Positions 36,404 through 38,548 of a DNA stretch of 63,314 bases are shown here, piece after piece. The number at the start of each line of letters is the position of its first letter. Within the stretch, counting starts at the first letter, position 1. Origin of the DNA: a virus (Duplodnaviria > Caudoviricetes); IMG/VR virus record IMGVR_UViG_3300037156_000068, positions 1 to 63,314 of that record, one strand, 5' to 3'. The notes beneath the pieces were generated by a model, which was not told where the DNA came from, did not search any database, and saw only the letters and a list, made by a program, of their open reading frames with translations. The translations under genes were made by a program, and so were the position numbers.

Positions 36404-38548
36404 TTATGGCCCAACGTTGCCCGTGACGGACTTCTTAACACCAGATCCGCCGTCGGCAACACCATTTGAGTTGGTGGCTCCGCACATATTGTTGGCGATT
36501 GTGTAGTAGTTAGACGTTCCAGTATTCACGATCACGCAGTAGGTAGATGTTGGATCACCGGGAATTCCGAGCATATTTGAGTTAATCTGGAAGTTCTGAA
36601 CATTCGCCCCGACAGCAATGCCCCCAGAAGCATTACCAGAGATGACATTCCCAGTTAACTGCACACCGCCAGAACCATTTATAAGTACGCCATAAGTGGT
36701 ATTATCTCTAATATGGCTCGTCCCGACACTAGCAAAACCCGAAAATCCACTAGCAAATGTTAATCCGTTGCCAGAGATGGCAGTGCTAAGGTATGAGTTG
36801 CTAATCTGAATACCAGTACCACCATTAAAGACTGCGCCATTGACAGAGTAATCACATTCGAGATCGGATACGATCAGAAACATGCTGCCGCTATCCACTT
36901 GAAGACAACTACTCCCGCTCCCAAGAACATCGCCAGAAGAGTTGGCTGAAGTCATGGCCCAGGTATTGCAGCCGGAGCCCATGTGGAAACTAATGGTGGA
37001 TGTATTTGTAGAGTTATAGCCTAGGGATACGTTAGTCCAACGAGTACCATATACTTGAGAGGCCCCGGAACCGTCACATAGGAAGGCGGATGCCCCTGTC
37101 GGATTAACCCCATATATATTGGTAAACTTAGTTTCAGAGGCCCCCGTGAGGTGGACAAAGCCGGGAATACTGCTAAAATACAGATCATTATAGTGGCCTA
37201 GTGAGGCACCTGCGGAGACGCCCACAGCAAGACCATAACCAGTTGTCCAGCTTCCGCCGTTAAGGATGGCGAGCCCGCTGACATTGACATTATAAGCATT
37301 GACTGAGATAAAGTCGCCGGATGCGGCGTAATAATAGAAGTTGGTCGCCTGAGGGCCGGAGCCCACAATGTTGCAGCCGGTAACGTTATCATTGATACCC
37401 GAGTTGAAGCGGAAGGTCCCAGCTCTGAACCAGATGGTGCCGCCCGTACTTGCACAGGCCGCCAGGGCATTATTAAATGGTGTGACGTTATCAGAAGCGC
37501 CCGTCGGATCGCCTCCGTACGTACCGACCACATCGTAAATCGTCGCGTATGTCCCGCCACCGCCACCGCCACCGCCAGGGCAACCCGTGGCCATTGTGCA
37601 GACCGCAGATCCGCTTAGAGTAATGCTGCTACCAACCGTTAGGGCTGAGGGAATTGCAATCGTGGAGGCGCTTAGATGGATAGTACCATTAAAAGAACTT
37701 CCATCCCACAGACCCCAGGTCCAGCTATTTGCCGTACTGTCCTTTTGGAGTGAGATCGCAGGATTCCCGGTTCCGTAGTTAGATGGTACCCATGCGTCCC
37801 AGACTGTATTTGCAGTTGCAGTGCCTGCTATGTGCTGATTATATTGGGTCCATGTATTTGTGAGAGCCTGAAATGCTAGGACTGTGTTATTCGCCGAGCA
37901 AGTGCCCGAAGTTGTAATCGCACCGCCAGAGAGCCCCGTACCACAGATCACACTAGTCACTGTGCCGCTGGTGGCAATCGCGTGCCATGCCCCATCATCC
38001 CCCAGGAAGCGGCCAGAGACGGTTGTGGGAGAGGGGACCAAACCATTAGTCGTAGATAGGAAAGTCTTGGTCAGGTCGAGAGCTAGGGTACCCGAAGTTG
38101 TGATAGTGCCACCGGTGAGGCCAGTTCCTGCGGAAATTGAGGTTACTGTCCCTGCACCCGCGCCAGCGGCTGGAGATGTCGTCACCCCGTCCCAGATTAC
38201 AGCACCAGAAGCGCTCTTAAGGATTTCACGATAAGAACCTTGGCCCCAGATTAAGGCGGACCCGAGGGCATCCAAGGTGATTGGATTGGTATTAGGGGTA
38301 GTCTCATTAGAGTCTTGCCAAGTGCCCTTATTCGTAAGGGTGGACGGAATATAAAAGCCAACAGTACCACCCACGATAGGCTGACCATTGGCATCAAGGA
38401 ACTGCGTCCGGGCATTAGGCAAGATGGCCGCAGTCTGCGCGCTGGCCACAGACGGTACAGACACGGGTGCAATAGTTGCACATCCGATTAAGGCTAACGC
38501 ACTGAGAATTGTTGATAATTTAATAATCAGACTTACCTTGCCAGCCAT
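36404..38548 (-). CDS. tailspike (pectate-lyase-3-like beta helix) with N-terminal signal/lipoprotein-like leader
   Basis: leader ...LSALALIGC...ASA|QT; attachment domain ILPNARTQFLDANGQP; YGGDPTGASDN..FNNAL...GGTIWFRAGTF. Confidence 0.8.
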   Translation of the reverse strand: MAGKVSLIIKLSTILSALALIGCATIAPVSVPSVASAQTAAILPNARTQFLDANGQPIVGGTVGFYIPSTLTNKGTWQDSNETTPNTNPITLDALGSALIWGQGSYREILKSASGAVIWDGVTTSPAAGAGAGTVTSISAGTGLTGGTITTSGTLALDLTKTFLSTTNGLVPSPTTVSGRFLGDDGAWHAIATSGTVTSVICGTGLSGGAITTSGTCSANNTVLAFQALTNTWTQYNQHIAGTATANTVWDAWVPSNYGTGNPAISLQKDSTANSWTWGLWDGSSFNGTIHLSASTIAIPSALTVGSSITLSGSAVCTMATGCPGGGGGGGGTYATIYDVVGTYGGDPTGASDNVTPFNNALAACASTGGTIWFRAGTFRFNSGINDNVTGCNIVGSGPQATNFYYYAASGDFISVNAYNVNVSGLAILNGGSWTTGYGLAVGVSAGASLGHYNDLYFSSIPGFVHLTGASETKFTNIYGVNPTGASAFLCDGSGASQVYGTRWTNVSLGYNSTNTSTISFHMGSGCNTWAMTSANSSGDVLGSGSSCLQVDSGSMFLIVSDLECDYSVNGAVFNGGTGIQISNSYLSTAISGNGLTFASGFSGFASVGTSHIRDNTTYGVLINGSGGVQLTGNVISGNASGGIAVGANVQNFQINSNMLGIPGDPTSTYCVIVNTGTSNYYTIANNMCGATNSNGVADGGSGVKKSVTGNVGP

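Follow-up and report, generated by a model that had tools for sequence, protein, structure and literature searches.

A P22-like phage genome encodes a leader-bearing, cysteine-paired tailspike, predicted to be exported, beside a leaderless fibre with the same anchor domain

The 63,314-base DNA analysed here (the window) is the whole of IMG/VR viral record IMGVR_UViG_3300037156_000068, linear and rated 85% complete, and it holds two genes whose proteins begin with the same tailspike anchor domain. One encodes a leaderless, cysteine-free fibre in the usual tailspike slot; the other encodes an extra spike with a signal-type leader, located between the terminase and portal genes. Comparison of this spike with its relatives supports export and disulfide folding because leaders of unrelated sequence recur in front of the domain, because an even number of cysteines tracks the presence of a leader, and because cysteines are gained and lost in pairs. 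An earlier note, made from the letters of this DNA, had proposed that the spike is folded in the periplasm and either docks on virions after lysis or is membrane-anchored; the comparison strongly supports the export and disulfide part of that proposal, while the docking or anchoring half stays undecided. As the best overall explanation, to which we give a probability of roughly 45%, we propose a Sec-exported, periplasm-oxidised spike that docks on particles at lysis.

The leader has the features of a Sec substrate cut by signal peptidase I: Lys4 and Lys10, a hydrophobic run from residue 11, and the stretch P-S-V-A-S-A before Gln38, with Pro at −6 and Ala at −3 and −1. The earlier note had described a 37-residue leader containing L-I-G-C and an A-S-A↓Q site, and both motifs are indeed present, at residues 20-23 and 35-38. 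The ATG of the spike overlaps the terminase stop by 16 nt. In-frame alternatives exist at GTG29, GTG34 and TTG43, and none is preceded by a Shine-Dalgarno-like run; homologues also keep the full leader, so translation from a GTG inside the leader, which the note had raised against its own proposal, fails. The stored gene call for the record is a 396-residue fragment (P0004) that begins at Met319. We rejected this start as a caller error, since no Shine-Dalgarno-like run lies before that ATG and the homologue in L005, a metagenome contig, has Gln at the position.

L005 carries the same gene order as the window (terminase, spike, 341-residue gene, 211-residue gene) with the same 16-nt start overlap. 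Its leader is 28 residues long and unrelated in sequence to the window leader, and follows the same design, from basic to hydrophobic to A-V-A↓Q; the terminase end and the mature N-terminus that flank the leader are almost identical in the two genomes. The homologues P0002, P0003, P0007 and P0009 also begin with signal-type leaders. Among relatives, leader sequence is unconserved, but the closest homologues and 25 further related loci have the same kind of leader (basic, hydrophobic, AxA↓Q). When viral contigs were scanned with the conserved N-domain, 69 loci came up, and reading the frames upstream of the domain yielded 66 unique fibres, the window's two included. In 26 of these (the window spike among them) a start codon and a hydrophobic-core leader precede the domain, with the leader ending a few residues before it; the other 40 have a Met within a few residues of the domain. 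A small-x-small motif closes most of the related leaders, and the residue after it is Q or D, mostly Q. A profile search of 1.84 billion representative proteins found 31,726 with the N-domain at E <= 0.001, and the best 150 of these comprise 86 leader-bearing proteins, 61 leaderless proteins and three whose leaders were apparently shortened by the gene caller. Scanning genome contigs with the single protein gave no match, and scans with the family alignment returned a single weak locus per contig set, viral and genome (L003, L004). Judged by this recurrence in relatives, at the level of sequence comparison, the window leader behaves as a real signal peptide.

The distribution of cysteines points in the same direction. 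The earlier note had counted 12 cysteines in the mature spike and none in the 370-residue fibre, and this count is exact: cysteines lie at positions 23, 202, 217, 317, 323, 365, 392, 491, 527, 548, 565, 671 and 689, with the first inside the leader and the last eight in the beta-helix. It had also pointed to an internal repeat in which one copy gains two cysteines together. The two copies share 17 of 27 residues and only copy 2 has cysteines (202 and 217), in agreement with that description. In an alignment of 15 members of the beta-helix spike family, every member has an even number of cysteines once the leader cysteine is excluded. Six are invariant (365, 392, 491, 527, 548 and 565), and ten variable pairs appear and vanish together: 202/217, 140/155, 246/248, 254/264, 280/288, 317 or 320/323, 85/90, 62/95, 98/125 and 446/447. 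Specifically, Cys202 and Cys217 are both present in four members and both absent in 11, and the partner of Cys689 moves among four places (671, 696, 713 or the C-terminus) in 14 members, with both cysteines gone in the remaining one (P0014).

This parity extends beyond the beta-helix family. Among complete unique fibres in the set of loci, counted by eye from a table, the number of mature cysteines is even in 24 of 25 leader-bearing fibres (range 6 to 20) versus 18 of 34 leaderless ones. For the representatives the corresponding figures are 85 of 86 and 33 of 61 (binomial p 2e-24 and 0.6; Fisher p 4e-12), and median cysteine density is 1.20 per 100 residues in leader-bearing proteins compared with 0.90 in leaderless proteins (p 0.003). 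These sets contain related, non-independent sequences, yet the counts vary widely and the parity persists. At the sequence level, parity kept through changes in count is expected of proteins that fold in an oxidising compartment, not of cytoplasmic ones, and by the same comparison the 12 cysteines of the mature chain behave as six pairs. Taken with the leader, this makes export and disulfide folding of the spike very likely, with the folding probably outside the cytoplasm, where phage particles are built. The sole complete leader-bearing fibre with an odd count among the loci, that of L029 (start near 8094), has 13 cysteines, which could reflect a sequencing error, a free cysteine or an inter-chain bond.

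The domain that follows the leader is a candidate link between the spike and the particle. The N-terminus of the spike aligns with that of the leaderless fibre, as the earlier note had recognised (residues 39-157 against 4-127, 64 of 124 identical or 52%, E 1e-30 by BLASTP). The note had called the two proteins paralogs; the short-domain tree leaves duplication within the genome unsettled, and the term may be too strong. This tree of 95 residues is poorly resolved, giving two changes of the leader trait without rejecting a single clade of all leader-bearing rows (p-AU 0.585), and therefore shows neither duplication in the window genome nor import. A profile of 33 N-domains, the spike's included, matches the 'Tail spike protein' of PDB 9vyg/9vyh (9vyg_m, E 2.5e-11) and the 'Tailspike head-binding domain' 7eeq_A (E 8.3e-11), and phrog_26190 matches both the spike (E 7e-13) and the 370-residue fibre. 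Cleavage at the predicted A-S-A↓Q site would put a conserved Pro at position 7, compared with positions 6-9 in leaderless relatives, and the domain is N-terminal only if the leader is cleaved.

Conservation and gene position give further information. Between the window and L005 spikes the N-domain is the best-conserved part, at 81% identity versus 51% for the rest, and relatives that have the same beta-helix with other N-terminal domains still have leaders. In all ten related viral records (eight rated 100% complete, four with terminal repeats) a leader-bearing fibre is the sole anchor-domain gene. In the leader-bearing viral loci the fibre occupies the normal spike slot, downstream of homologues of the window's 240-, 184-, 442- and 243-residue proteins, and the homologue of the 822-residue protein also lies upstream of the fibre where tblastn detected it (L010, L011, L018 and L037). 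A holin follows the leader-bearing fibre in L010, and the fibre of L028 contains a Tail Collar domain. These patterns of conservation and slot fit, as far as sequence comparison can tell, a protein that needs to dock on the hub. In addition, the C-terminal tip of the leaderless window fibre recurs, at 39-40% identity, as the tip of the leader-bearing fibres in L009 and L017; exported and non-exported fibres therefore appear to trade the same modules.

At its other end the spike is predicted to form a right-handed parallel beta-helix. An AlphaFold2 model built on a nine-row alignment has a mean predicted local distance difference test (pLDDT) score of 60, and residues 335-714 form a beta-helix of regular short strands in which the scores of 10-residue blocks are mostly 74-91 (lowest 61). 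Foldseek gave 76 matches to the PDB at E <= 0.001, those listed being mostly beta-helix enzymes and tailspikes. The mannuronan epimerases AlgE6 and AlgE4 are at the top (5lw3, E 4.6e-9; 2pyg), and further matches include GH87 glucanases (7c7d), alginate epimerase/lyase, the Sf6 tailspike (E 5e-6) and CBA120 TSP3. The beta-helix also has weak profile matches to polysaccharide epimerase/lyase-type enzymes. A Pfam search of the spike found no family at E <= 0.01, and hence neither Beta_helix nor Pectate_lyase_3; precomputed PF13229 matches occur only in the homologues P0006 and P0008. The earlier note had termed the protein a depolymerase-type spike, and the confident beta-helix and its Foldseek matches bear out the fold. 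The model thus supports a tailspike-type beta-helix protein, predicted to be active on polysaccharide.

In the route that we propose, the host Sec system would export the spike late in infection, and removal of the leader at A-S-A↓Q would bare Gln38 in about the register in which leaderless spikes start. The mature chain would trimerise and be oxidised in the periplasm, would not meet the cytoplasm-built particle until lysis breaches the inner membrane, and would then dock on the tail hub via its anchor domain, giving the phage a second specificity in addition to that of the leaderless fibre. In the classical P22 case, spikeless heads can be supplied with tailspikes in vitro. Several points weigh against this route. 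Leaders were called by our own hydrophobicity rule and by motifs, and the best-150 sample comes from a profile built partly from leader-bearing rows, with start codons as called by the sources. One of the 25 leader-bearing fibres from the loci and one of the 86 leader-bearing representatives have an odd number of cysteines. Residues 1-247 of the spike model fall below pLDDT 50. The spike gene is not in the tail module and has two leaderless genes next to it; the leaderless fibre, with the same anchor domain, would reach the hub first in the cytoplasm; and an L-I-G-C lipobox would tether the spike to the membrane instead.

The last two points bear on a different explanation, in which the spike is exported but is no part of the particle: it would be an envelope lipoprotein held by L-I-G-C, or a soluble or released enzyme, editing the surface polysaccharide of the host late in infection and so destroying receptors on the infected cell and debris, or loosening capsule or matrix for release and spread. 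L-I-G-C, at the end of the h-region and with a basic n-region (K4), fits the usual lipobox pattern, [LVI][ASTVI][GAS]C (residues 13-23 here), and lipobox-type leaders recur in the beta-helix family in P0016 and in the group P0005, P0012 and P0015. The stretch from Cys23 to the cleavage site can be read as a lipoprotein tether, or as the last part of a long h-region with a normal c-region behind it. Moreover, the spike slot is already filled by the leaderless fibre, the fold is that of polysaccharide enzymes, and the three genes after the fibre have signal-type leaders and four, four and six mature cysteines, one of them an SGNH-type esterase below the Pfam cut-off; because these three look exported, the phage would export several sugar-active-looking proteins, and an envelope enzyme is a serious option. 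Such an enzyme, with no particle partner, would have no need of a head-binding domain, yet this domain has been retained, and no part of the protein is better conserved. The lipobox is absent from the closest homologues (L005/P0006, P0001, P0002 and P0003) and from every one of the 86 leaders found among the best family representatives, even lipobox-bearing members retain small-x-small↓Q ahead of the domain, and leader-bearing fibres stand as the only holders of the anchor domain in those ten related records. PF08139 had no match on the spike protein. Because the nearest relatives have no lipobox, lipid anchoring of the spike is unsettled, and we regard a role apart from the particle as somewhat less probable than docking.

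Explanations that dispense with export fare worse. Translation could begin downstream, or Sec could ignore the N-terminus, so that folding takes place in the cytoplasm and the cysteines of the spike are oxidised only after release. The internal GTG and TTG codons and a stored gene call that ignores the leader are compatible with this, and disulfides have been reported, for a siphovirus, to form in assembled tails (PMC13576161). However, the internal starts have no Shine-Dalgarno-like run and Met319 is unconserved, leaders of the same kind and of unrelated sequence precede the same domain in dozens of loci, and even cysteine parity follows the presence of the leader rather than the domain family; we consider a wholly cytoplasmic spike improbable. 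Still less probable is a pair of isoforms, an exported form from the first ATG and a cytoplasmic, particle-bound form from a start near residue 43. TTG43 does fall at the start of the anchor domain, and the other fibre of this phage also starts with TTG, but no ribosome-binding run precedes TTG43, the Leu codon there belongs to a domain motif conserved in leaderless and leader-bearing relatives alike, and cytoplasmic copies would hold 12 unpaired cysteines.

The features of the spike and its surroundings are collected in Table 1. The late genes of the window are on the minus strand, in the order small and large terminase, three inserted genes, P22-type portal, scaffold, lysozyme, P22-type coat, hub proteins, ejection-type proteins, the 370-residue fibre, and three small genes with signal-type starts. 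Portal and coat are P22-type above the Pfam cut-off, and one ejection-type protein has a weak P22 gp7-like match below it. The spike gene is the first of the three inserted genes.

Table 1. Positions of the spike gene, its parts and its neighbours in the window
Feature	Coordinates	Strand	Basis or remarks
Whole spike gene	36404..38548	(-)	ATG start, 714 aa: leader, head-binding domain, fibre repeats, Gly8 hinge, beta-helix
Leader, residues 1-37	38438..38548	(-)	basic start K4, K10; hydrophobic core modelled as helix 5-18; small residues before Gln38
L-I-G-C lipobox-like motif, residues 20-23	38480..38491	(-)	sequence motif
A-S-A↓Q predicted signal peptidase I site, residues 35-38	38435..38446	(-)	directly before anchor domain
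Tailspike head-binding (virion anchor) domain, residues 38 to ~125	38174..38437	(-)	BLASTP, profile, PHROG
Fibre repeat copy 1, residues 131-157, no Cys	38078..38158	(-)	sequence
Fibre repeat copy 2, residues 193-219, Cys202 and Cys217	37892..37972	(-)	sequence
Gly8 hinge, residues 325-332	37553..37576	(-)	sequence; just after Cys317/Cys323 pair
Right-handed parallel beta-helix (predicted), residues 335-714, eight Cys	36407..37546	(-)	AlphaFold2 and Foldseek
Terminase large subunit	38533..39972	(-)	Pfam and PHROG; directly upstream of spike gene
341-aa neighbour, no leader	35295..36320	(-)	syntenic in L005 (83% identity); atlas lead: viral 'pectate lyase family' clusters
211-aa neighbour, no leader, no Cys	34615..35250	(-)	syntenic in L005 (78% identity); DUF4082 below cut-off
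P22-like portal	32299..34434	(-)	PF16510, E 1e-158; downstream of three inserted genes
Leaderless, Cys-free fibre, 370 aa	17480..18592	(-)	TTG start; normal tailspike slot after ejection-protein genes; same anchor domain
Three post-fibre genes	15010-17511	(-)	signal-type leaders; 4, 4 and 6 mature Cys

The 341-residue neighbour of the spike has no Pfam or PHROG match. An atlas lead places the 211-residue neighbour with viral clusters of unknown role, among them weakly Mtd_N-bearing clusters. Among the three post-fibre genes, the last has a GDSL/SGNH lipase match (E 4.6e-6, below the Pfam cut-off), and none has a homologue in 73 related loci at E 1e-5. Further genes of note also lie on the minus strand. 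A 354-residue gene inside the tail module (23716-24780) matches sulfotransferases weakly (PF00685, E 0.002, below the cut-off) and has a homologue of 44% identity in L047. The 141-residue product of 24780-25205 is a Tail Collar protein (PF07484, E 3.5e-18) whose homologues, by tblastn, occur only in leaderless-fibre loci (L008, L019, L021, L040 and L047) and never in leader-bearing ones. The 184-residue protein of 26534-27088 contains a run of about 26 prolines, and in many related loci its first part is conserved ahead of the hub gene.

A prophage and lysogenic-conversion reading was set aside, the window being a stand-alone viral record rather than a prophage within a chromosome; no integrase is among the open reading frames (ORFs) listed for the window, although no search was aimed at integrases. 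As to the host, the pointer to Proteobacteria comes only from cultured relatives whose spikes are leaderless. Spanin and holin genes, sought in the window to fix the envelope type, yielded only small membrane proteins and one lipoprotein-like ORF. The latter (47717-48289, plus strand) has a lipobox L-A-A-C with Asp at +2 and lies near 48999-49346 (plus strand), whose product has a single N-terminal membrane helix; the two may be lysis or envelope genes.

The particles of tailed phages are taught as cytoplasmic assemblies. Our topical search of full-text literature, supplementary virion-proteome tables aside, brought up no description of fibres or spikes that tailed phages export by Sec. We tentatively suggest that a large lineage of P22-like, short-tailed phages builds its host-recognition gear in another compartment, by Sec export and periplasmic oxidation, and snaps it onto finished particles just after the inner membrane is breached; the window would then hold both routes, with a cysteine-free fibre made in the cytoplasm and an exported spike of six disulfides. 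If this is true, a receptor-binding protein that matures in the periplasm adds an assembly step tied to lysis, and spike function would depend on the Sec and disulfide machinery of the host. Maturation in the periplasm would account, too, for possible misfolding of these spikes when they are produced in the cytoplasm for work on enzymes or for phage engineering. The window's two genes offer a clean test pair, with the same anchor domain in the presence and absence of a leader and cysteines.

Parts of this arrangement have counterparts in known systems. Filamentous Ff phages have a receptor-binding virion protein for adsorption, g3p, that is made with a signal peptide and has disulfides; their particles are put together at the membrane and extruded through it, whereas the window phage is tailed, with heads and tails built in the cytoplasm. 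P22 gp9 folds in the cytoplasm without a signal peptide. It and the Sf6 tailspike likewise combine a head-binding domain with a right-handed beta-helix that acts on surface polysaccharide, and no sequence-level match between either and the window spike was found. AlgE-type mannuronan C5-epimerases, alginate lyases and GH87 alpha-1,3-glucanases are the best fold matches to the spike beta-helix, at only 12-16% identity. Sec-exported and SAR (signal-arrest-release) endolysins, such as Lys44 of Oenococcus phage fOg44, are late phage proteins that the host's Sec machinery moves through the membrane ahead of lysis (PMC6116005). These are lysis enzymes and not particle parts; the excerpted text of the same review, on phage enzymes that breach the envelope, mentions signal peptides for endolysins only (PMC6116005). 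The MAT fibres of Bdellovibrio bacteriovorus, in an excerpted description, have a signal peptide, a conserved beta-rich anchor of about 130 residues and a trimeric fibre with swappable tips (PMC10769870); they resemble the phage spike in that layout, and are cellular proteins on the surface of a predator.

The closest likeness in sequence is to leaderless podophage tailspikes (PDB 7eeq and 9vyg/9vyh; Pseudomonas phage PAE2; the 'bacteriolytic protein' of Ralstonia phage P4282), which have the same N-terminal anchor followed by a fibre or beta-helix and are encoded after the ejection-protein genes. According to a figure legend, 7EEQ is from cyanophage Pam1 (PMC13730344). By tblastn, the anchor domain is 48-57% identical over about 80 residues to those of cultured or deposited relatives, and two spring-water podophages also have a leaderless anchor-domain spike after the ejection genes. 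In PAE2 (L006) the spike ORF (14864-16873, plus strand, 669 residues) has no annotation in the deposited record; short ORFs on the opposite strand are listed in its place. All of these leaderless tailspikes start within a few residues of the domain; the window spike, in contrast, has a 37-residue signal-type leader, paired cysteines and a location between terminase and portal.

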